This document shows positions 2,555 to 62,395 of a stretch of 64,000 nucleotides of DNA, in pieces. Below the pieces are notes generated by a model, which saw only the letters and a list, made by a program, of their open reading frames with translations, was not told the origin of the DNA and ran no database searches. Positions within the stretch are counted from its first letter, which is position 1. Each line of letters opens with the position of its first letter. The stretch covers positions 16,740,001 through 16,804,000 of the forward strand of contig OX597825.1 in the NCBI GenBank assembly GCA_951406725.2, in the 5' to 3' direction. A program made the position numbers and the translations under genes. Source of the DNA: Octopus vulgaris (taxonomy: Eukaryota).

Positions 2555-4475
<1,921 letters not shown>

Positions 4476-4678: not shown

Positions 4679-5173
4679 TATACGTATGCATAGATATATA
4701 TGTGTGTGTGTGTGTATACATATATTTATATATAAATAGCTACATATATAGAGGTACAAACATACATATATATGTATTTCTCGCTCTACACGCATGCACG
4801 CACGCACGCACGCGCACACACACCATGCACATGTAGAAACGTACAAAATCACACACACACACATAGACATCTATCTATCTATCTATCTATCTATAAATAG
4901 ATACGTGCGTATTTTTTTCGCATGAATATATGTGCGTATGTTTTGTCATTACCGAACGAGGAGAAAGCATTGACGGCAGTATAAATCTTTATGTGTGATG
5001 GAAGTTTTTTTGCGCGTGCTTTGTGATGTTTATGGCGCGTATTTAGGTGTGAATCTGCGCATGCGTGGTGTATTTTGGTAAATATGAGAAAGTATATATT
5101 AGGTTAATTGTCTCTAGTTGATGTCTGTGTGTGTTTGTTCTGAAACATTATCACGTATGTGTGTGTGTGTGTA

Positions 5174-5206
<33 letters not shown>

Positions 5207-5460
5207 GTGTGTGTGCATGAGTGTGTATGTGTGTGTGTGTGTGTGCATGAGTGTGTGTGTGTGTGTGCATGAGTGTGTGTGTGTGTGTGTGTATCTAGAC
5301 GCAGGAGTGGCTATGTGCTAAGATGCTTGCTTCCCAACGACATGGTTCCTGGTTCAGCCCCACTGCATGGCAACTTGGGCAAGTGTCTCCTACTATAGCC
5401 GCGGTTCGACCAAAGCCTTGTGAGAGGATTTGGTAGACGGAAACTGAAAGAAGCCCGTCG

Positions 5461-5498
<38 letters not shown>

Positions 5499-5734
5499 CG
5501 TGCATGTGTGTGTATGTGCATGTGTGTATTTGGGTGTCTGTGTTAGTCCCCCCACCATCGCTTGACAGCTGATGTTGGTATGTTTACATCCCTTTACCTA
5601 GCGGTTCGGCAAAAGAGACCGATAAAATAAGTACTATGCTTACAAGGAATAAATCCTGCGGTCGAATTATTTGATTAAAGGCGGCACTCCAGTATGGCTG
5701 CTGACAAGGGATTGAAACAAGTAAAAGAATAAAA

Positions 5735-5780
<46 letters not shown>

Positions 5781-6318
5781 CTGGGTGACTCTGTGGTTTA
5801 AACATACATGTACAAGTGTGTAGGTAGGTGTTTGCATATATCGAGGTATGTGTGTGTATGCGTGTGTGTGATGGTTGGTTAACTATAAGACTCTTGTGCC
5901 TGAGTGTGCAGGTGCAGGTGTAAATATTTGTGGGTCTGTGTCAGTGTGCACATTGCCGGCCTGAGCGCATGCGTGTTTGCGTGAGTATCTGTATGCGTGT
6001 CTGTGTGTGCGTATAGGTGTGCGTGTGTGCATATATGTAATGTCTTGATAGCGTGAATGAATGGGTATGAATGCCTACGTGTGTAGGTGTATGTGCCTAT
6101 GTGTATGCGCGAGTGTGTGTGTATGTGCGTATTTGCATATGTATATGTGTGTATGTGCGAGAGAGCAAATGTATGTGTGAATGCATTTGTATTTACCATT
6201 GATCTGTTTAGTTATAAATCTCAATTCACTCCGGAAATGGAGATGAAATTTGGTTCTTACAACAGGTTTTACACAAAAGACACAGAAAAAGAGACTAAGA
6301 GAGAGAAAGAAAGAAACA
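4676..6318. repeat. Copy B of the ~1.7 kb direct duplication
   Basis: Colinear with 2610-4320, including the embedded SINE. The ORF track shows the same spurious peptides twice. Confidence 0.9.
5298..5737 (+). mobile_element. SINE family A (inside duplication copy B)
   Basis: Near-identical to 3295-3740. Confidence 0.8.
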
Positions 6319-6760
6319 TCTAAAAAAGAGAGGGAACATGTGCGTGTCGTGTCATACATACATACATATATATATATATATACATATATATATACATATA
6401 TATATACATATATCAATATGAATGAAAGAAGGGAAGTGAGGTAGAGTAAGAAAGAGAAAGTGAAAGTAAAAGCTGCGGCAAGTGATACATATTATAGTAG
6501 TCACTTTCTCAAAACTGTTACTTTTCTGTAATGGTATTATTCTACTAGTGGTCAAAGCAACACTCACCTTACAATCACCACTTCGACACTGGTGGAGGAG
6601 GTGGGGGGGGGTTGGAGTATACGAGGACAATGTGATGTATTTTATATCGAAAAAAGCTTTTATGTTTATCATTTTCGATCCTTTTAGCTGTAGAGTAGAT
6701 TTTGTTGCTATGGTGATTTTCGTTCAGTAACTTAGAAGAGAACACATGCAAATATATATT

Positions 6761-8178: not shown

Positions 8179-8482
8179 TGTTTTATTGGAATATTGATAA
8201 GAATAAATGCCATTTTAGATCAGTTTAGTTTTCATACAAGTCTAGATGTTTTTAGTTAAATGCAAAGGATCAAATGGCATAATTTGATTCTAAAGTTTAC
8301 TATGGGATTAGTTAAGAAAATTGTAAAATCGAAATTGTAATGATAGATGCAGGCAAGTTTGATGTGAGGTGAAGAAACTCACTTTGCAAACACATGGCTT
8401 TATTTGTCCCTGTGTTGGCAAGTACATTGTACTAAGGCTCCCGGCCGAACAATACCTTGTGAATGTATTTGGTAAAGCCCGG

Positions 8483-8584
<102 letters not shown>

Positions 8585-8591
8585 ACTATCT

Positions 8592-10036
8592 ACGGAGGTG
8601 GCGAACACGTACATCGCGTCCGTCATCTACTACCGCCTGACCGTCGTACCTTGTCCCGACCGTCGTTTGTCCCGACCATCACCAAACTACAACGCATCCT
8701 CTTTCGCTTCTTGTGGAAAGGATGCGTCCCGATGGTCAGGCGATCCATTTGCTGTCAACACCCGTTAAAAGGAGGGCTGGGCATGCCGTGGTTGATGATG
8801 CGCAGACACGCGCTGAGACTGCGACATCTCTGGCTCTATGTAGACAACGGTGAACAGGTGTGGTCGCCGTTTGTGAGGCACGCTTTCCCGCAGCTCGTCT
8901 CTATGACCGAACTGCAGTCGTGGATCAAAAAGAGGCCGAGGAAGGGCGAATGGCACCGCGAGTGTCGCGTTGCTCTCAAGCAACTCTGCCGTCCTGGGTC
9001 GACCTTAAGTGACTTCAACACAACCAAAGCATTCTATAGGGGTTTAGTGGAGGGGAGGTACGACGACGAGCTCGGGGCGAACCTGGATGTCGACGAGGAG
9101 TACCTGACCCGCCTGTTCAGGACGACTTTCGGGCCAGGGCCCATGGACAACTTCCAGAGATCCCTGGCCTGGCAGTGCTACCGAGAAGCGCTACCCGTTC
9201 GGGATAAGCTCTATAGACACGGCTCGAGAAACACGGGGCCGAACTGCCCGAGATGCGGTCAGAGCGACGAAACCGTTCTGCACGCACTCGTTCAGTGTCC
9301 AACAATGTCCGACCTGTGGGCTTATGTCGAACAACTGCTGTCACGTGTGGGACGAGTCGGTTTATCAGCTGAGTCTATCGTCAATATTGTCACGCTTCCT
9401 TCCTTCAAACGGGAAGGAAGAGCTATTTTCATCATCCTTGTGGCTATGGCGAAAGAATGTATCTGGTGGACGCGTCTGAAAGGATTGGAGACAAACACTT
9501 TCCTCTCTGGTCAATCTCTCATCAACTTCTTCAAGTACCACTTGAAAAGGAAAGTGAGAGTAGAGAGGCAAGTTTTGTCTAGCGAATGTTTTAAAAAAAG
9601 ATGGGTGAATGTAGCAAGAATGGCACGTATGAATGACGAAGCCACCTTGAGCATAGTCCTATGAACCCAGAAATCGAAAACAGAGAGTTGCTTATTTGCA
9701 AAAAAAAAAAAAAAAAAGAAATATAAAATGTGACTTCATTGACCGAGGTTACCGTGGTCTTTTCCGTAGGCTTTTCTTTCCACGGGTAAACCTCACCTGT
9801 CCTCCCCTTTACACTTCATATTGACATTTCTGTGATAACGATCCCTATTGATCAATTTTTTTTTCCTCTCCCCCTTTTTTTTTAACCCCCCTTTTTTTTG
9901 TCCTCTTTCTCTCCTTTTACGATCCCTTTTGATCGAAACTCCCCTTCCTTTTTTTTTTTTTAAACCTTCAAAAGAAAAGCTCTACCTTGTAATTTGTACT
10001 ATCTGTGTGCAGCCCTGTGTGGCTAATAAAGAAACA
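8592..10036 (+). mobile_element. 5'-truncated L1/Tx1-clade non-LTR retrotransposon
   Basis: ORF2 C-terminal half, then a pyrimidine-rich 3' UTR ending AATAAAGAAAC. Flanked on both sides by (TATC)n. Confidence 0.85.
8601..9664 (+). pseudogene. Tx1/L1-like ORF2 fragment (post-RT region and zf-RVT zinc knuckle)
   Basis: ANTYIASVIYYRLTVVPCP, then a frameshift from a short local duplication at ~8640-8675, then LQRILFRFLWKG...PLKGGLGMP...CPRCGQSDETVLHALVQC. These are typical L1/Tx1 ORF2 motifs. Confidence 0.85.
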
Positions 10037-23318: not shown

Positions 23319-24109
23319 GCTGGAGCATCAATATAATTTTTTTACTATTTACGATGTTATTATTGCATCTCGCTTTAAGGACTCTCATATTTTTGTGTAA
23401 GTAGCAAAATGCTCTGGCAACTTCGATTTTTGTTTTCCTTGCTTTTTGTCGTCCACATCGACGTCCCTGTTAATGTTCTTGTTGTTGTTCCTGTTGTTGG
23501 TTTCACCGCCGTTGCTTTTACTAATGTTGCTACTACTGCTACTAATGCCGTTGTTGCTGTAACGATTTGTAAGATTTTGTTATCTATTGAGTTAAAAAGA
23601 TCAGTTTGAGGAGGGAATTTTGAGCCTCATAGATTTTTTTAGTGTAACTCCGAGAGATTTTGCTTTAGGCTTTCAAACAAGCAGATCTTTTAAAGAAAAT
23701 CAATTTATTTGTGTTAATCTTTTCACTTTTTATTTATTTATTTTCATAAAAAAATTTTTCATCATTGGAAACATGTGTGTTTGGTCTGAAATAGCATGTT
23801 TCTCTATCTGCTTATATTACATTTGGAATAAAAGAAAAAAAAAGACTATTGAAAACAGTGTGAATACATACGTATATACTTGCATACATTCTAACACCCC
23901 CACGCCCTACATATATATATATATATATATATACATATAATTTTTACAAACTTTTGTATACATAATTTTTATATAAATACAAGTGTTTGCATATATCTTT
24001 ATATATAAATATATTTATCTAAGGGAATATATATATGTATATATATATATATATATGAAAAAACAAGTAAAAAATAGAAAATGCTAAAATAATTTTATAG
24101 TGAACATTT

Positions 24110-24147
24110 CAGTACCGGTTTCGGTCATTTTGAGACCTTTTCAACTG
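24110..24147 (-). ncRNA. Minimal hammerhead motif, U3-A8 core variant (left arm)
   Basis: Reverse complement of 26060-26097. Confidence 0.7.
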
Positions 24148-25092
24148 TAACGATTAAATAATTAAATTTAGAAAAATTAGAAGAAAAGTTTTTTTAAAAG
24201 AATATTTCTATAGTAGTGTTCAGATTTAAGTGGCATTCTGCCTTTCTCTGACTCCCTTGTTTGCACTTGTGTGTTCGAGGTAGTTGTGAGTTCTTGGTAG
24301 GGTAGTAGAGGGAAGGCTGGTGAGGAAAGGGGGTGGGAGAATCTGGGAGTGCCCTGATGGTCGTATTTTGAATGGTCAGTGGCGGCTGGCAGTCTCAGTT
24401 CAATTCAGGATTGTTTATAGAATTAGCGTAGGTGTTATACTAAAAAACATTAGTGACAAACTTAAGGGGTAGGGGGTGGAGAAGAAGAAGAAGAAGAAGA
24501 AGAAGAAGGAGAAGGAGAAGATGATGGTGATGGTGGTGATGATTATGACGACGATGATGATGATAACGATGATGATGAAGAAGAAGAAGAAGAAGAAGAA
24601 GAAGAAGAAGAAGAAGAAGAAGAAGAGAAGGAGAAGATGGTGGTGATGATGGTGGTGATGATGATGACGCCGATGATGATGATAACGATGATGATGAAGA
24701 AGAAGAAGAAGAAAAAAACAGAGAAGGGAGAATATGAATGGGTGTAAATATAGCTATGAAGGGGCTGATTAGTAATGGATTCTATGGAGTGTAGTATTTG
24801 TGTGTGTATATATATTTTTTTCTTTTATTCTAAAGTTGAGGTATATTAATTGTTTGTCGTAGACCCGTTAAGAAGTGGCTTGTATTTTGTAATAAAGAGA
24901 TTTTCTTTACTTATTCTTTGTCTCGAGGTTGTATCGTCCCTAAATTGGTAGAGGGGAAAATTCTGAAGTTTGGTGTTTTTTGTTGGCGCAAGTATCTATG
25001 TGTTGGCTAAAAGCTATTTTTCTGTTTTGGGGAATTTTTATCTGGGATCTGTGCAGGGCCATTCGTTTACGCAAACCATTTTTTTGTTTGGC

Positions 25093-25375
25093 CTAACCTG
25101 CTCCGGGTGTCAAGAGCAGTACATAGGCCAAACAAAAAAATGGTTTGCGTAAACGAATGGCCCTGCACAGATCCCAGATAAAAATTCCCCAAAACAGAAA
25201 AATAGCTTTTAGCCAACACATAGATACTTGCGCCAACAAAAAAACACCAAACTTCAGAATTTTCCCCCTCTACCAATTTAGGGACGATACAACCTCGAGA
25301 CAAAGAATAAGTAAAGAAAATCTCTTTATTACAAAATACAAGCCACTTCTTAACGGGTCTACGACAAACAATTAA
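25093..25375 (+). pseudogene. PLE GIY-YIG endonuclease C-terminal fragment
   Basis: LTCSGCQEQYIGQT, a frameshift in an A-run, then LRKRMALHRSQI...HIDTCA...FPLYQ...KENLFITKYKPLLN. Aligns with the end of the 34.5 kb ORF. Confidence 0.85.
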
Positions 25376-26059
25376 TATACCTCAACTTTAGAATAAAAGA
25401 AAAAATATATATACACACACAAATACTACACTCCATAGAATCCATTACTAATCAGCCCCTTCATAGCTATATTTACACCCATTCATATTCTCCTTCTCTG
25501 TTTTTTTCTTCTTCTTCTTCTTCATCATCATCGTTATCATCATCATCGGCGTCATCATCATCACCACCATCATCACCACCATCTTCTCCTTCTCCTTCTT
25601 CTTCTTCTTCTTCTTCTTCTTCTTCTTCATCATCATCGTTATCATCATCATCGTCGTCATAATCATCACCACCATCACCATCATCTTCTCCTTCTCCTTC
25701 TTCTTCTTCTTCTTCTTCTTCTTCTCCACCCCCTACCCCTTAAGTTTGTCACTAATGTTTTTTAGTATAACACCTACGCTAATTCTATAAACAATCCTGA
25801 ATTGAACTGAGACTGCCAGCCGCCACTGACCATTCAAAATACGACCATCAGGGCACTCCCAGATTCTCCCACCCCCTTTCCTCACCAGCCTTCCCTCTAC
25901 TACCCTATACCAAGAACTCACAACTACCTCGAACACACAAGTGCAAACAAGGGAGTCAGAGAAAGGCAGAATGCCACTTAAATCTGAACACTACTATAGA
26001 AATATTCTTTTAAAAAAACTTTTCTTCTAATTTTTCTAAATTTAATTATTTAATCGTTA

Positions 26060-26097
26060 CAGTTGAAAAGGTCTCAAAATGACCGAAACCGGTACTG
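26060..26097 (+). ncRNA. Minimal hammerhead motif, U3-A8 core variant (right arm)
   Basis: CAG-TTGAAAA-GGTC tcaaaat GACC-GAAA-CCGG-TA-CTG. Confidence 0.7.
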
Positions 26098-26184
26098 AAA
26101 TGTTCACTATAAAATTATTTTAGCATTTTCTATTTTTTACTTGTTTTTTCATATATATCAACTCGTGTGTTCCTTTTCACCCTT

Positions 26185-26227
<43 letters not shown>

Positions 26228-26230
26228 TAT

Positions 26231-26292
<62 letters not shown>

Positions 26293-26297
<5 letters not shown>

Positions 26298-27559
26298 TTG
26301 GCAACTAAGTTCCCGCCGATTTTTTTAATTAAAATTTTTTTTAGAAGTTTAATAATAAAAAACAACTAATTAGTCAATAATGTATTCACCTTTCTTGTTT
26401 ACAACTTTTTCCTAACGTTCAACAAGGTATTGAATATCTTGTTGGTAGAAATCACCCGATTTCGACTCGAAAACTTGGAACAACCAAGCTCTGAATTCTG
26501 CGTCACTATTGAAAGAAACTCCGCGCATAGCTTTTGAAAGAGATTGAAAGAGGTGGAAATCCGTTGTTGCCAAATCAAGAGAGTACTGCAGGTGTGGCAG
26601 CACTTCACAGCCATGCGTTTGAATAGCTTCCTTGGTCATATTGGCGATATGAGGGCGGGCGTTGTCGTGCATTAGAACTCCATGCTGTCGATTTGGTCTT
26701 TTCTCTTGAATAGCCATGATGAGTCGTTCCATCTGTTGAACATAGAGTTCGGCGTTGACTGCTTGGTTCCGTTCAAGCAATTCCAAGTCCCACCATATGC
26801 ACAACATCGTTTTAGGCGGATGGGGATCTTGTTTCCTCGCGCGGTGTCGCTTGTTTCCCGGGGCTAAGCCATTCCTTACACTGCTTCATATTGATGTACA
26901 GGCACCATCTTTCGTCGCCAGTAACGATTCGGTAAAGAAATCATTGCTTGCGTCCATGAGTTGAGGGTTGAAGAGCAAGCAAATCAGCGGAGATTGTGGC
27001 TCGTTGATCATATTTGGTATCACTTAGCGGAACCCGTGCTCTGAACGTTTACCATCGAGTGAAGATGCTTCTCTATAGCAGTGTGTGAGCATTTCATTTT
27101 CTCTGCCAGTTTCCTTGTCGTTTGACGAGAGTTTTCGTGCAAATATAGGTTCAATCACTCTTTATCAAACTTAACTGTACGGCCAGGACAAAGTGCGATT
27201 TTGAGCTCAAAATTTCCATTTTTAAGTTTGGCATACCAATCACGAGCGGTTCTTTCATCTATGAACCCTCTCCGTACACAGCACAAATGTCGCGAGCAGC
27301 TTTTGCGGCCTTAGAACCTTCATAAAAACAAAATAGAAGGAGGTGTCGAAAATGGTCGTTTTTCTTAACTTGACATTCCATTTTAATGATGTGAAAAGAA
27401 ACAACAATTAACTAAAATTAGCTAGATTAAAAAAAAGCAAAATAGATTTCAAAATGATTCCAAAATAGAATTCTCGAAAAACATAGATTCCAAAATTTAA
27501 AAATGCAATAAATTCAAAATTTGAAAAAAAAAGCGACTGGAACTTAGTTGCCAATCTAA
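26293..27559 (-). mobile_element. mariner DNA transposon (mellifera-subfamily-like), full length and degraded
   Basis: TIRs TAGGTTGGCAACTAAGTTCC and GGAACTTAGTTGCCAATCTA; ~1.27 kb; inserted in (TA)n. Confidence 0.9.
26370..27381 (-). pseudogene. mariner transposase pseudogene (D,D34D type)
   Basis: MECQVKKNDHFRHLLLFCF...MLCIWWD...HDNARPH...YSLDLATTDFHLFQSL...KGEYIID*, with frameshifts. Confidence 0.9.
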
Positions 27560-34108: not shown

Positions 34109-34145
<37 letters not shown>

Positions 34146-34275
34146 CACAAACCCATCGCATTTCTCACAAATCCTTACACCATCGCATCCCATACCAACA
34201 CGAATACGACAACTACCTACCCCCCTCCAACCTCCCCACCCAAAAACACTCCTACACATACAACCAGAACTTTAA

Positions 34276-36624
34276 CAAAGAATACACCCCTTACCTCAAC
34301 AACCATTTTTTAGACAGAGGGGAAAAATACAAACACCACCGCTAACACAGACCCAAAATAAGAAAACAAAAATTATAAACCTCTCCAGCAAAACACTGAC
34401 ACCAACCCAAATCAACATCCTAGCAAGAAGTTTTGAAATTCACACCCACCCCAAGAACACCCAACCCCCGGAGGTCAAGGATGACGTTTCTGAATTCTGC
34501 AGAAAACTTCGCCTAACAGAAGCTTTGACAGATATTAACAATGGGGACGACTCATTGATCAGAAATAAAAGCAACTTCCTACCACCAAAAGGGAGAAATA
34601 AAACACTGGACGATTTCTGTAAACACATCCAGAGTCTCCCCTTTACCCCAAGCAAAACCAAGGTAAAATCCAATTTCAGTAAGGAAGAATGGGAAAACCT
34701 ACGTGACATACAACTGGATAAAAACCTCACCATCAAAGAAGCGGACAAAGGGAGTGCTGTGGTCCTTATGGACACGGAATTTTATAAACACCTAGTGTTC
34801 TCCATGCTTAACAATAACATTTTCTATGAGGTTATTAACAACTACAAACAGCAAAAAACAATCAGAAACCTCACCACACTCATACACCAACACGGTCAGG
34901 GACTCACAGAAAAAGAAAGGGATTATATCACCATTTTCAAATGCAAGCCCAGCCTTTTTTATGGCCTTCCTAAAATCCATAAAAACAAATACATCACCGA
35001 AGCCTGCAAACTCTCCACTGACATCCACATCAACATCAAAGCACCGGAGGACCTAAAACTAAGGCCCAACGTGGCTGGTACCTCCTGTGAAACACACCGC
35101 CTGAGTAACTTCCTAGACATCCTTTTGAAACCTTTCCTTACCCACATCAAAAGTTTCATTAGGGATGATCTGGACATGCTCAAACACCTCCCGAAAACAG
35201 TTAACGAGGAGGCACTCCTGGTATCCTTTGATGTCATCAACCTCTACACCAACATTCCACATGAGTATGGTATAGAGGCAATTGACTTCTGGCTAGAAAA
35301 ACACCCAGAGACATTCCCTGACCGCATTAACAAGTCTTTTATTACAGAATCTCTTAAGTTCATTCTGACAAACAATTTTTTTCTCTTCGACGACACACAC
35401 TACCGTCAAAAATATGGCATTGCGATGGGTACCAAGGCTGCACCAGTCCTTGCGAACCTCATAATGGGTTACTTCGAACTGTCACTCTATGAAATATCAA
35501 GCCAGAAATTTGGACATGTTTTCCACACCTACCTAATGGAAAACTGGAAAAGGTATTTAGATGATTGTTTCATCATATGGAAAGAACCTTATGAAAAACT
35601 CCTGGAATTCAAAACCATACTAAACAACATACATCCCAACATCCAATTCACTATGGAATTAAGCAAACATCATCTCCCATTCCTTGATCTCCTAATTATA
35701 AAAACACCTAAGAACCAAATCATAACAGACATCTACCACAAACCTACAGACTCACAACAATACCTCCTCTTTAGTTCATGCCACCCAAAACACACCAAGA
35801 CAAATATCCCTTTCAATTTAGCTAAAAGGGTATGCACCATTGTCTCGGATCCAAAAACACGAGAAATACGCCTTCAAGACCTCAAAAAAACACTATTACA
35901 ACGTCAATATCCCTCCACCCTTATAGAGTATGGAATAAAACGCGCCAAAGAACTAGACAACACTACACTGAAAACCACCCAACCTAACACCACACACAAC
36001 CTCAAAATACTTCCATACATTTCCACCCACAACCCCAAAAATATCGAAGCATACACCACAATCATACAAAACCTCAGTCTACTGCCAACAGACCCAAAAA
36101 TGAAAAACATTATAAATACACACAAAATCCTCAAATGCAAAAGGCAACACAAATCTTTAAAAAAACTCTTGACAAATGCCAAACTTCACACACCACATCC
36201 ACCCCCAACAGTAAAAAAATGTGCACGCTCAAACTGTGGTACCTGCCCCTTTCTACTTGAAGGCTCTGAATTTACCTTCAAACAAGGTACGAAGTTTAAA
36301 ATCAAGACTAACTTCTCCTGTTCCTCCGAGAACCTTATCTACGTTCTCACATGCGCTGGTTGCCAACATAATTATGTTGGACAAACGAGTCTCCCGTTAC
36401 GTAAACGAGTTACGGTGCATAAAGAACAAATAAATCTCCCGGAATACCGACAAATTCCACTGAGTGACCACTTAGACTCATGTGCTAAAGACTTAAACCC
36501 CAAATTCTATATATTCCCCTTCTACCAATGTAAAGACGGGATCACCACACAGGAGAGAATTAACAAGGAGAATCTCTTTATTGAAAAATTCCAAACACAA
36601 CTTAATATGCAAACTCCTCGTTGA
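34276..36624 (+). CDS. PLE reverse transcriptase / GIY-YIG endonuclease polyprotein (true start not resolved)
   Basis: The frame is open from 34276. Motifs: KIINLS, IKEADKGSAVV, FYGLPKIHK, SFDVINLYTNIP, GIAMGTKAAP, RYLDDCF, FLDL, CARSNCGTC linker, NLIYVLTCAGCQHNYVGQT...LRKRVTVH. Confidence 0.9.
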   Translation, partial: QRIHPLPQQPFFRQRGKIQTPPLTQTQNKKTKIINLSSKTLTPTQINILARSFEIHTHPKNTQPPEVKDDVSEFCRKLRLTEALTDINNGDDSLIRNKSNFLPPKGRNKTLDDFCKHIQSLPFTPSKTKVKSNFSKEEWENLRDIQLDKNLTIKEADKGSAVVLMDTEFYKHLVFSMLNNNIFYEVINNYKQQKTIRNLTTLIHQHGQGLTEKERDYITIFKCKPSLFYGLPKIHKNKYITEACKLSTDIHINIKAPEDLKLRPNVAGTSCETHRLSNFLDILLKPFLTHIKSFIRDDLDMLKHLPKTVNEEALLVSFDVINLYTNIPHEYGIEAIDFWLEKHPETFPDRINKSFITESLKFILTNNFFLFDDTHYRQKYGIAMGTKAAPVLANLIMGYFELSLYEISSQKFGHVFHTYLMENWKRYLDDCFIIWKEPYEKLLEFKTILNNIHPNIQFTMELSKHHLPFLDLLIIKTPKNQIITDIYHKPTDSQQYLLFSSCHPKHTKTNIPFNLAKRVCTIVSDPKTREIRLQDLKKTLLQRQYPSTLIEYGIKRAKELDNTTLKTTQPNTTHNLKILPYISTHNPKNIEAYTTIIQNLSLLPTDPKMKNIINTHKILKCKRQHKSLKKLLTNAKLHTPHPPPTVKKCARSNCGTCPFLLEGSEFTFKQGTKFKIKTNFSCSSENLIYVLTCAGCQHNYVGQTSLPLRKRVTVHKEQINLPEYRQIPLSDHLDSCAKDLNPKFYIFPFYQCKDGITTQERINKENLFIEKFQTQLNMQTPR

Positions 36625-37256
36625 TCAAACTTCCTTTCTCTACCTCACTCTTCATGGATGGACTAACACAAATATATAAAGATACCATGCATTCATCACT
36701 TCAAGCTAAAACTTATATTCTTTAAATATCATTTTTACTATTGTTGTTATTACTATCATTTTTATTATAAATGATATGACAATTTGAAATGCAATTGTCT
36801 ATGCAGATTTATATTATTAGAAAATAATATAAATAAAGTGTTAAAATCTGAAAGTTAAGTTAACAAGCAATTATATAAAAAAGATAATGCAAATGAAGCT
36901 AAAATGATAGTTTTATAATTTGGGTTTTATTGAAGAACTCAAAAGAGTTGTCTCCCCTTACTCACAACACAGGAACTGAAGAACCAGGACCACAATTACT
37001 ACTACTTCCTGTCCTGCAACATGCTGAATTTAACAACACAACACATCACATGCTCTTAATCCCTTTGGATCTTAACACCTCAAGGTAATTTTTTGGTAAA
37101 CAACCATAAAACTCAAGATACACAACGAACTCACAATGTATCGGAGAACTTATTTTTCAATTTTTGTACATTTTTATCATTATTCTTTTACAAAAAACAA
37201 TGCAATTTTCTTTTTTTCCCCTTTCTAATTTTTAAAAAAACTTCTTAAAACATAAA

Positions 37257-37297
37257 TATTCTTGACAAGTCATACAATGACGAAAACCGGTTGAATA
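37257..37297 (+). ncRNA. Minimal hammerhead motif, U3-A8 core variant
   Basis: TATTC-TTGACAA-GTCAT aca ATGAC-GAAA(A)-CCGG-TT-GAATA; one extra A after GAAA. Confidence 0.65.
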
Positions 37298-37436
37298 AAT
37301 ATATATTTATATATTTTATCATTTTCTCATTTTATTAAAATTTTCTTTCATTTGAGCATTCTGCATTTAAAAAAAAATATTTCCTTACTATATATATATA
37401 TATATATATTTTGTATATATATATATACATATATAT

Positions 37437-37637
37437 TTGAGGGACGTTCGCCTACACTCTTTTTCTCCCGGCGCACGCCACTTCCGCTCGGCCGGCCATT
37501 CCCTAGATGACATCTCAGTGTTTGGTCTCGCCCCCCACAATGGTCGCCCACTTTCCAGGCTCCACTTGGAGCAACGCTACATCTTCACCCTACAAACTAC
37601 TACCCCACACGGACTTAACACAGCCCCCTCCTCTTGA
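37437..37637 (+). pseudogene. PLE GIY-YIG C-terminal fragment
   Basis: RDVR...ARHFRSAGHSLDDISVFGL...RLHLEQRYIFTLQTTTPHGLN matches the typical Neptune-type PLE C-terminus (VARHF..HS..EQ..IF.L.T..P.GLN). Confidence 0.75.
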
Positions 37638-40487
37638 GATCCGCTTCTTTTTTTTTTTTTTCTGTTTCCCGGATACAACACCCACACACACACACCTACC
37701 TACCTCCCACACGCCTGTTCACACACACACATACGTAGACCCATCTACGTACATACATTCACACATTTAATCACACACACTTATAGACATACATGCACAC
37801 ACTAACATACAAACCAACATGCACATACACACACACATACATACATACACACACACATACATACTTGCACACACACACACACACAGACATACATACACAC
37901 ATACATACACACATACATACGCACATACATACACACACACTCATACACACACACCGCACGTACATACTTCACACACACACACATGCACACATACATGTAG
38001 GCATACACATACATACATACCCACACATGCACACCCTTACACTGAATGCACACACACATACACCTTTTTGTATCTCTTTTCTGCTTTCCGGTTTTGGCTG
38101 ATGGATCCTCGGTTCCCGCGTAGCGGGGCGTTCGAGGGCCTTTGCGCTCGCGCGCCTTGGCGCGCGCTGGGGGCTTGGTCGGCCCCATGGGCTTGCGTTG
38201 TATTGCTTGTGCGTTGTGTGCGTGAGCGCGCTTCGTGTGTGTGGGCTTGCTTCGGATGTGCGCGTGCGTATGTATGCATACATACCCACACACGAGCATG
38301 CATCCCTCCCCACATACATACACGCACACCTACTCACACACACACATACACACACACATACCCGCACACACACATATACATACATACACACACATACCTA
38401 CTTCAGACATACACACACACAGACATACACCCATACACTCACACTCACACGCATACACACACACATACACACGCACACGTACACATACACACACACACAC
38501 CTACATACATACATTACACTTGTACACACACACTTACATTCATACACACACACACCTACACAGCCATACCCTCACTCAGACACACACACCTACCTACACA
38601 CACACACAACACACACAGACACACACCCATACATACATCTACACACACACGCCTACACACATACATACATACATACATAAACACACACACATACACATAC
38701 ACACACATACGCACACACACATATACTTATACACATGCACACACACACATACATACATACACCCATACACATACACACACACATACCTACATACTCCTAT
38801 ACACACATACATACACACAGACATACACACATACACACTCACACAAACATACACACACACATACTTACACACACACACTCGCCTGCACGCGCACACACAT
38901 GCATGACAAACACCCATACACTCACACTCACATACGCACACACCAACATAAACACGCACACGCACACACACACCTACACTCCCACACACATACATACGCA
39001 CCTACATACACACACGCACGCATACACACGCACACACACGCATACACACATACATTACACACGTACACACACACCTACATACACATGCATACACACACAC
39101 ACACAAACATGCACGGACACACCCAGACATACATACATACACCTATATACACACACCCACACACACATACACACACACACACACACACACATACACGGAC
39201 ACACCCATACATACTTACATACATACACCTATACACACACGCCTACACACCTACATACACACACATGCATACACACACACACATGTACGCACATACACAC
39301 ACATATACGCACATACATATATACCCACACACATGCACACACACACACATACGCACATGCATGCATGCATGCACACGCGCACACCTACACGCATACACAC
39401 ACACACACTTACACATACATACATACACACACATACATACACCCATACACATACATGCATCCTACACACACATACATACACACTCACACATACATACACA
39501 CACACACACTCACTCACACACCTGTATGTACGCACACACACATGCACATACACACACTTCCACACACCCACACGTACATACATACACACTCATACACATA
39601 AACACACACACACACACGGACATACATCTACGCACACACATATATACACACATACTCACATACATTCATCGGACACACTGACACCCAGACATACACACAG
39701 ACACACTCACACATCCACACACATACATACTTACGCGCATACTCGTAGGCGCGCGCACACACGCGCTTGCGCCGGTTCGCGCACGCATACGCGCTGCATG
39801 CACCTCGCTCTTGGACCCGACGAGACCTTCCCGCTCGTTCCTGGGACCGTCGCTTGTCGTTGGGTTTTCCCACGCCCGTCTCCGCGGGACCACTCTTCCA
39901 TCTTCCCCTCGGCTGGAGTCCTTTTCCTTAACCCCCCCTTTTTTTGTTACACACACGCGCACACATATACACACCCACTCACACACACACATTGCTTAAA
40001 TATATACATTACTCTTACACACATTCAATCTACTCGCCATTAATACTACCACGACACTGGACACACACACACACTACTACTCAACACACGCTGGCACGCT
40101 ACATACGCCCCCACCCCTTCCCCTCCCTCCCTTCCTCCTTCCTTCATTTTCTTACTACTGACCACTGTCTGCTATGCCTACTACTGTCTCGCCCTACCTC
40201 ACACGCCTACACACAGACGCACACACTAACACATACATATATTTTTTGTTTTTTTATCTCGCCTCACACACACATACACACACGCACAGGCACACACTCA
40301 CACATACACACACATCTGTTGCGTTACCAACCCTGTCTCCACTCTTTTGGCTTTAAAAACCTACTTTGCTCTTGTTATCGTAAACTTCCGCCTTTCACCA
40401 TGTGGACTTCGTAAACACCAGTCGTTTTTTTCTCCATCTCCTGTTGCCCGCTTTGGGATCTTTCTTTCCTCTCTCTTCCTTCTTTAT

Positions 40488-40522
40488 GTTTCCGACGAAG
40501 AGCTCCGCTCGAAACGTCATAC
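40488..40522 (+). ncRNA. Minimal hammerhead motif (U4C core variant)
   Basis: GTTT-CCGACGA-A-GAGC tcc GCTC-GAAA-CG-TC-ATAC. Confidence 0.6.
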
Positions 40523-40615
40523 CTTCCTGCTTCCATATTTCCTGAGCGCCTATTAATAATAATACTGTAATTGTTCCACTGTTGTTGTGTTTTTTTGTTT
40601 TCCCGTTTGGATTAA

Positions 40616-40696
<81 letters not shown>

Positions 40697-55560: not shown

Positions 55561-55874
55561 CAGCAGGATATCAAGTAGTGATTCAGTACGACCGTTTCAC
55601 GCGGCTCTGTTTAAATGAACAATGCAATCATTACATTTCAGTCATTACATCAATTTAAATGTAGTGTCATCTTCAGCTGCACAAATAAATAAATGGAATT
55701 TTAACAAATAGGACACATTAGAAAAATTATATTAATGTGTCCTACTTGTTAAAATTCCATTTCTTTGTGCAGCTAAAGATGGCACCACATTTAAATTGAT
55801 GTAATGACTGCGTTGTTGGATGAAATAGAGTCGCTTTAAACGGCCGTACTGCATCATTACTTGATATCCTGTTG
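55561..55874. repeat. ~150 bp imperfect inverted repeat (hairpin) between (TA)n tracts
   Basis: Arms 55561-55720 and 55733-55874 with a 12 bp loop, e.g. GGAATTTTAACAAATAGGACACATTA / TAATGTGTCCTACTTGTTAAAATTCC. Confidence 0.85.
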
Positions 55875-61875: not shown

Positions 61876-62395
61876 ATATATATATATGAGCTTTTGGGAA
61901 GGAAGAAAGAAGGCTATTTCCAATGCTTTAGGCTATGTACCATCTTGATTGATAGTCTTAAGTGACACCCCAAATCTTCAGGTGTAGAAAATTCAGATGT
62001 TGCAACAGTAAAGCCGTTGTGTAGAGACTTCAGGTTTTACACCGGCAAATCAGATGTGCACATCTAGAAGAGAGTAAAATATAATCCAATATAAGAAGAC
62101 AAAGAAGGCGTCCGTCACATCCTTAATACTCAGTTATAATTGTTTCTGAAGTAACTCTGTTTTCGATACCATTCCATGCAAGATTAGCTCCTGCGCCGAG
62201 GGTGCTTTTGAAGCAGGTTTGCATAAAACGCAAATATGATGTGACCTGGAACCTTAAGGTGAACTGGCTTTGAAATCAGAGTTAGTACAGAAACAACTGT
62301 AACTGGTCATTAAAGATATGACGGACTCTTCCACTCTGCTCTTTTTTGGCTTATACATACATACATATACACACACATATATATGTATATATATA

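Follow-up and report, generated by a model that had tools for sequence, protein, structure and literature searches.

A nearly unmutated palindromic Penelope-like insertion in Octopus vulgaris with its inversion point at a small hairpin in the endonuclease coding sequence

Introduction

In the Penelope family it is typical to find an adjacent inverted, 5′-truncated copy, a "tail" on one side only and insertion into microsatellites (PMC8557442); how the tandem and inverted structures arise is described as unsettled (PMC8557442, PMC11167929). Head-to-head Penelope palindromes were read by Arkhipova et al. in 2013 as the outcome of self-priming on an antisense template (PMC3846280). Outside the family, fold-back at small hairpins through 2 bp of microhomology has been described at L1 insertion sites (bioRxiv 2024.12.14.628481) and at yeast breaks (PMC11724301).

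Here we analyse a palindrome within a stretch of 64,000 nucleotides of Octopus vulgaris DNA (contig OX597825.1, positions 16,740,001 to 16,804,000), called the window below, in whose own coordinates all positions are given. A preliminary description, made from the sequence alone, had noted that Penelope-like elements often show inverted 5′ duplications, and this layout is indeed routine in the family (PMC8557442). Like the canonical EN+ Penelope-like elements, the locus has a head-to-head, 5′-truncated inverted copy, an AT-rich simple-repeat target, a one-sided extension (27-30 nt here, a 30-40-nt tail in theirs) and a palindrome or overlap at the inverted junction, for which self-priming has been proposed (PMC3846280, PMC8557442). 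Unlike the EN+ examples of those papers, the whole insert is palindromic, with arms of about 1 kb that extend into the endonuclease ORF, and its junction is formed by an imperfect stem-loop whose spacer measures 28 nt, whereas the rotifer examples have overlaps or palindromes of 15-38 bp at the pLTR end (PMC3846280, PMC8557442).

The hammerhead-like motifs of the locus resemble those of Penelope elements in being minimal and of type I, with a U3-A8 core, a dimer-dependent stem III and an arrangement as opposite-strand pairs, but the pair lies about 1.9 kb apart here as against 100-700 bp, and stem II is of 4 bp (PMC4209133). As in PAc, a Poseidon element of Anolis (Frangieh et al. 2024), the tail lies between two ends and an ATG is found at hammerhead stem II, about 110 nt from the tail end here and 111-118 nt in PAc (PMC11167929). 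The ATG frame closes after 14 codons in the octopus copy and so may not mark a true start; the clade is also unlike that of PAc. L1 twin priming inverts sequence without duplicating it. The inversion junctions of L1 twin priming and fold-back share with the present locus 2-3 nt of microhomology at sites of retrotransposition (PMC10191854, bioRxiv 2024.12.14.628481), but in the L1 fold-backs reported it is flanking genomic DNA that is copied, and here it is the whole insert (bioRxiv 2024.12.14.628481).

Results

The insert represents the 3′ kilobase of a Penelope-like element, comprising a coding remnant, a 3′ UTR and a minimal hammerhead, inside (TA)n (Table 1). The Penelope identity proposed in the preliminary description is supported by the GIY-YIG remnant, the hammerhead and the head-to-head layout. 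Since the endonuclease ends at a stop codon (25373-25375) that is followed by the repeat-rich UTR and the hammerhead, we rejected an assignment to the Naiad clade, which has an N-terminal endonuclease and no canonical hammerhead. Over 90 aa the remnant shares 51% identity (E 3e-30) with the end of the ORF of a neighbouring element. This neighbour, a near-complete, (TA)n-flanked Penelope-like element of another family at 34143-37388 (+), has an unbroken RT-endonuclease frame of 782 aa (34276-36624); a CX2-5CxxC linker is present, and a degenerate hammerhead lies at 37262. An L stands in this neighbour at the position of the CTA-encoded Leu of the palindrome.

Table 1. Features of the palindromic insertion and its flanks, in coordinates of the window.
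Feature	Position	Strand	Description
Left flank	23911..24048	.	TA-rich microsatellite, target site; junction blurred by the element's (AT)4
Left (inverted) arm	24049-25095, 1047 nt	- (element antisense on +)	About 1.05 kb from the element's 3′ end; lacks the tail
Minimal type I hammerhead-like motif, left-arm copy	24110..24147	-	From descriptor scan and fold
CTA microhomology	25093..25095	+	End of inverted arm and Leu codon of L-T-C; complements TAG 25124-25126
Penelope-type GIY-YIG endonuclease, C-terminal remnant	25093..25375	+	CxxC, YIG, R, H, H, C, E, N
Spacer	25096..25123, 28 nt, unpaired	+	Sense GIY-YIG coding sequence continuous with right arm
Native 6-bp stem, 10-nt loop	25098..25119	.	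Halves start at 25098 and 25114
Right arm	25124-26158, 1035 nt	+ (sense)	Remnant of the coding sequence, then a 3′ UTR containing trinucleotide repeats and a pLTR-like end
Minimal hammerhead-like motif, right arm	26060..26097	+	U3-A8 core, 4-bp stem II, self-complementary stem III
One-sided extension, 27-30 nt	26159..~26188	+	Read as Penelope "tail"; between right arm and (TA)n
Right flank	26189..26295	.	(TA)n, then unrelated decayed mariner in the same microsatellite

The GIY half of the endonuclease is lost through truncation; the fragment by itself gave no Pfam match, and an initial homologue search with it returned 0 relatives among 18 candidates. With phmmer, 256 relatives were obtained at E<=0.001; those examined number 153 (150 among the matches listed and three others, P0001-P0003), and 69 of them carry the motif at the L-T-C position, with L in 23, I in 29, M in 12, V in 4 and T in 1 at the place of the Leu. 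The gap after GQT measures 3 residues in 43 of these 69 and 2 residues in 20. An A7 run (25134-25140, mirrored at 25079-25085) carries a +1 frameshift in both arms. RT is absent from the truncated copy and present in the neighbour's ORF and in relatives P0001-P0003 (PF00078). The linker region, too, lies outside the palindrome copy, but in 43 of the 44 relatives of sufficient length RT and endonuclease are joined by the CX2-5CxxC linker, a mark of the Neptune and Nematis clades (PMC8557442). Neither blastn nor tblastn found a second copy of the palindrome's element family in the 64-kb window. A scan of bacterial and archaeal genomes, with nine candidate stretches, yielded related Penelope-like RT-endonuclease ORFs on three short contigs (L001-L003); none of the three has a long inverted repeat, and their presence in bacterial genome bins is probably due to contamination from animal hosts.

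When positions 23990-25110 were aligned with the reverse complement of 25100-26230, the near-identical head-to-head arms of about 1.05 kb reported earlier were confirmed, with 1031 paired positions, 0 substitutions and 6 indels. The blastn identity between arms is 98.1% over 1051 columns (E=0.0), far beyond chance, and the palindrome is the longest high-identity inverted repeat of the window. Four of the indels are of 1 nt in homopolymers (24726, 24815, 24953 and 24976), and the other two are a 2-nt TA (24298) and 14 nt in a GAA run (24611-24624); both arm-specific frameshifting deletions of the coding remnant sit in the left arm. The absence of substitutions at 1031 sites puts a 95% upper bound of 0.3% on arm divergence, and the arms are probably identical in vivo. 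Both arms contain an internal direct duplication of about 140 nt with mixed trinucleotide repeats in the 3′ UTR (24480-24715, 25500-25725). The palindrome, which had been delimited at 24047..26190, is confirmed in the sequence, but its mirror ends at 26158, and the left side lacks an equivalent of the stretch 26159-~26188.

TA microsatellite was seen at both outer ends, as had been claimed; the flanks are otherwise unlike each other, with a TA-rich tract on the left and (TA)n followed by a decayed mariner on the right. This mariner (~26295-27558, -) has terminal inverted repeats and lies in the same TA microsatellite about 105 nt from the palindrome. A foldback or MITE DNA transposon was rejected for the locus, given that the arms consist of retroelement coding and UTR sequence and the ends are asymmetric. 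The locus is a very recent, 5′-truncated insertion of a C-terminal-endonuclease Penelope-like element, and it is non-coding debris for which no function is implied. Other repeats of the window include a MITE-like imperfect palindrome of 314 nt (76%) beside (TA)n at 55561-55874, a smaller inverted pair at 62110-62326 and a young tandem duplication of about 2 kb (2660-4330 and 4700-6360), which served as a control.

The hammerhead invoked in the preliminary description was located, as a hammerhead-like motif, at 26063 (+) and at 24144 (-). These two make up the palindrome pair among the three hammerhead matches obtained when the window was scanned on both strands with a descriptor, while an Rfam scan gave no hammerhead match at the gathering threshold. 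The U3-A8 variant has been reported in Penelope elements (PMC4209133). The two copies are predicted to co-fold as a dimer through stem III. The extension of about 28 nt is found on a single arm, the one that the spacer continues into, and from the hammerhead core to the end of the element there are 125 nt in the palindrome and 126 nt in the neighbouring element. Because these distances match, the extension is most likely the Penelope tail, its membership in the element being judged from sequence in a window that holds a single copy of the family. Both ends lie in TA repeats, but the idea that two 3′ ends had both integrated leaves out of account that the ends are unlike, with a tail on one only.

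At the junction, the 28-nt spacer was recovered at 25096-25123, and the stem noted in it, in which CTGCTC and GAGCAG enclose the loop cgggtgtcaa, is a native hairpin nearly concentric with the palindrome (stem centre 25108.5, palindrome axis 25109.5, 1 nt off). Concentric stems of at least 6 bp arose in 0.84% of 5000 spacer shuffles; among 28-mers, 33 of 2321 in the neighbour's ORF and 2 of 807 in the arms have one. As antisense DNA, the hairpin has a free energy of -5.1 kcal/mol, equalled by 8/200 and 10/200 shuffles; its RNA fold is unremarkable (equalled by 23/200). The proposed sharing of CTA/TAG with the LTC codons is real as microhomology, but the pair falls outside the lowest-energy hairpin. 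Terminal CTA/TAG pairing is unstable, at -2.7 kcal/mol when forced as against -5.1 when free, and the forced-pair energy is equalled by 13% of spacer shuffles and at 76 of 1095 candidate sites in the neighbour's ORF; the arms themselves hold stronger fold-back sites elsewhere. Given the Leu in the neighbour and in 23/69 relatives, 2-3 nt of the junction microhomology are probably native. We regard the hairpin, which is modest and comes from a single junction, as suggestive, its site being good but not unique. A left-flank hexamer (24020-24025) complementary to the tail end (26180-26185, 2 nt off register) was considered as a sign of two-point annealing and was set down to chance, since such matches occur at 79 of 2216 comparable TA sites and at 4.7% of all positions.

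It had also been suggested that read-through transcription of the locus would give about 1 kb of dsRNA with a hammerhead near one end. Such a fold is predicted, with 1038-1039 arm-arm pairs, but the hammerhead would be buried in it. In either predicted read-through transcript, in which the antisense arm is made first, the sense hammerhead is fully paired with that arm, and it would thus be unlikely to fold as a ribozyme. That this dsRNA would be an ideal ADAR or Dicer substrate is unsupported, as neither transcription nor a host exon was found and the arms are not A-depleted (A fraction 0.41 and 0.31 in their two unique parts). The search for host exons was made by Pfam in 141 of 151 candidate frames, a scan that short exons would escape; the ten frames outside it lie in the neighbouring element. 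The frames scanned gave a LINE remnant, the mariner, one weak match and one low-complexity frame. The LINE-type remnant lies at 8363-9661 (+) and has a zf-RVT domain.

The suggested link between this dsRNA and the A>G islands of the window did not hold up either. These A-poor islands (~37455-37510, 38110-38270 and 39790-39950, with A fractions of 0.12, 0.04 and 0.09) belong to a different repeat, and 12 A>G-tolerant comparisons of the islands with the arms gave no alignment, the best score being only 31, which 2/100 shuffles reached. The link is an unsupported analogy. The repeat in question (~37437-40618, +) is a third one, beginning in the TA run directly after the neighbouring element, and it has a hammerhead-like motif at 40492. 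Its C-terminal part we take to read as GIY-YIG-like, although profile and alignment searches gave no match. Its strongly A-poor, G-rich islands look like A>G hyper-edited RNA that was re-inserted, and this repeat may be more interesting than the palindrome.

Discussion

Fold-back self-priming is in our view the best reading of the palindrome, with a probability of roughly one half. The endonuclease would cut the (TA)n microsatellite, and an antisense strand would be primed by the right flank at the start site of the tail end. Synthesis would halt about 1.1 kb in, just beyond the native 6-bp hairpin of the GIY-YIG coding sequence; the hairpin would then return the 3′ end so that TAG pairs with CTA, and the strand would be copied back on itself until, about 28 nt short of the end, the copy stops at the (AT)4 of the element and joins the left TA flank. 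The order of these steps is our inference throughout, as are the nature of the folding strand (cDNA or antisense RNA) and the source of the polymerase for the second arm (the RT of the element or the host). That the strand turning at the axis was antisense can be read directly from the sequence, since the spacer runs without a break into the arm that has the tail. The two ends of cDNA polarity lie within 31 nt of each other, for which the chance is 1.8-5.6% under uniform independent truncation, and a frameshift common to both arms is expected if one arm was copied from the other, although inheritance from a parent copy could also explain it. Fold-back at the hairpin, as first proposed for this locus, is plausible and the best single reading, but the case comes from one junction, and one locus cannot separate it from dual target priming.

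Dual target priming fits nearly as well, and we consider it possible, if doubtful. A protein dimer would nick both target strands, one of which would prime at the tail-end site and the other upstream, and both cDNAs would reach about the same point, set either by the 5′ terminus of a single broken RNA or by stalling at the hairpin, before joining via CTA/TAG, perhaps with the assistance of the 6-bp stem formed between the two strands. Identical antisense strands would anneal only at an internal inverted repeat, which would again yield this junction. The scheme directly explains why one end has a tail and the other has none, a single common RNA would explain the similar arm lengths as well as the common frameshift, and independent RT slippage could give the unshared homopolymer indels. 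In vitro, the PAc protein of Anolis, for which a dimer has been modelled, cleaves both target strands and extends each of them, starting at two adjacent sites on either side of the tail (PMC11167929). That RT starts at a tailed as well as at a tail-less end, and that both target strands are extended, suggests that the left arm was primed separately. However, the scheme would require about 1 kb of strand displacement or a pair of RNAs with coinciding ends, for which the chance is 1.8-5.6% under independence. PAc moreover belongs to the Poseidon clade, whereas the relatives of the palindrome's element carry the Neptune/Nematis-type linker, and TA microhomology fully accounts for the left end.

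An artefact of sequencing or assembly, namely a fold-back read or two loci mis-joined through near-identical copies, is unlikely, even though fold-back reads make up about 0.55-0.6% of ONT genomic reads (PMC12870357) and the differences between arms resemble consensus errors. Over 784 unmasked sites the arms differ by 5 small indels and no substitution, unlike the control duplication, which has 9 substitutions and 1 small indel in 1008 unmasked sites (Fisher about 0.002), and 4 of 66 homopolymer runs disagree between arms while the neighbour's ORF stays in frame through 168 runs. Such indels suggest errors in the consensus or slippage by a polymerase, not ageing, and they indicate a poorly polished palindrome and not an absent one. 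The symmetry does not reach into the flanks but halts at the element end, beyond which only one side has an extension, of the size expected; a technical fold-back would run on into the flank, and it is the respect for element ends that makes a real locus more likely. The agreement of this extension with the one-sided tail of the family likewise argues against a fold-back read. A later event in the host, whether inverted duplication of a truncated copy during break repair or replication or the homogenization of an older palindrome by arm-to-arm conversion, appears very unlikely. Long palindromes and TA runs are fragile, and conversion too would remove substitutions. Host fold-back from microhomology is documented (bioRxiv 2024.12.14.628481, PMC11724301), but the duplication is limited to the element and has a terminus of known type, and such a layout is routine for the Penelope family (PMC8557442).

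The layout, the opposite-strand hammerhead pairs (2014) and antisense self-priming have already been published, and since the arrangement is so well known for the family, the locus is best taken as a clean instance of it, not as a discovery. In the literature covered, to which older subscription papers did not belong, there was no study testing hairpins at Penelope inversion points, only the self-priming proposal of 2013. What the octopus locus adds is a long-armed, wholly palindromic and almost unmutated case with its junction at an imperfect hairpin inside an ORF. Being tidy, nearly unmutated and readable at its junction, it shows which measures could be taken across the family, i.e. the length of the spacer, the presence of concentric stems and the identity of the tail-bearing arm. 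A single locus decides nothing about mechanism. We would tentatively conjecture that minimal, young, wholly palindromic inserts are frozen intermediates of Penelope second-strand synthesis, in which native hairpins of the element fix the point of inversion and the tail records two priming sites on one RNA, and which could also routinely supply long dsRNA that is edited and re-inserted. If this is true, a genome-wide set of such inserts from this host, in which elements of the kind have been active recently, could decide between fold-back and dual priming.
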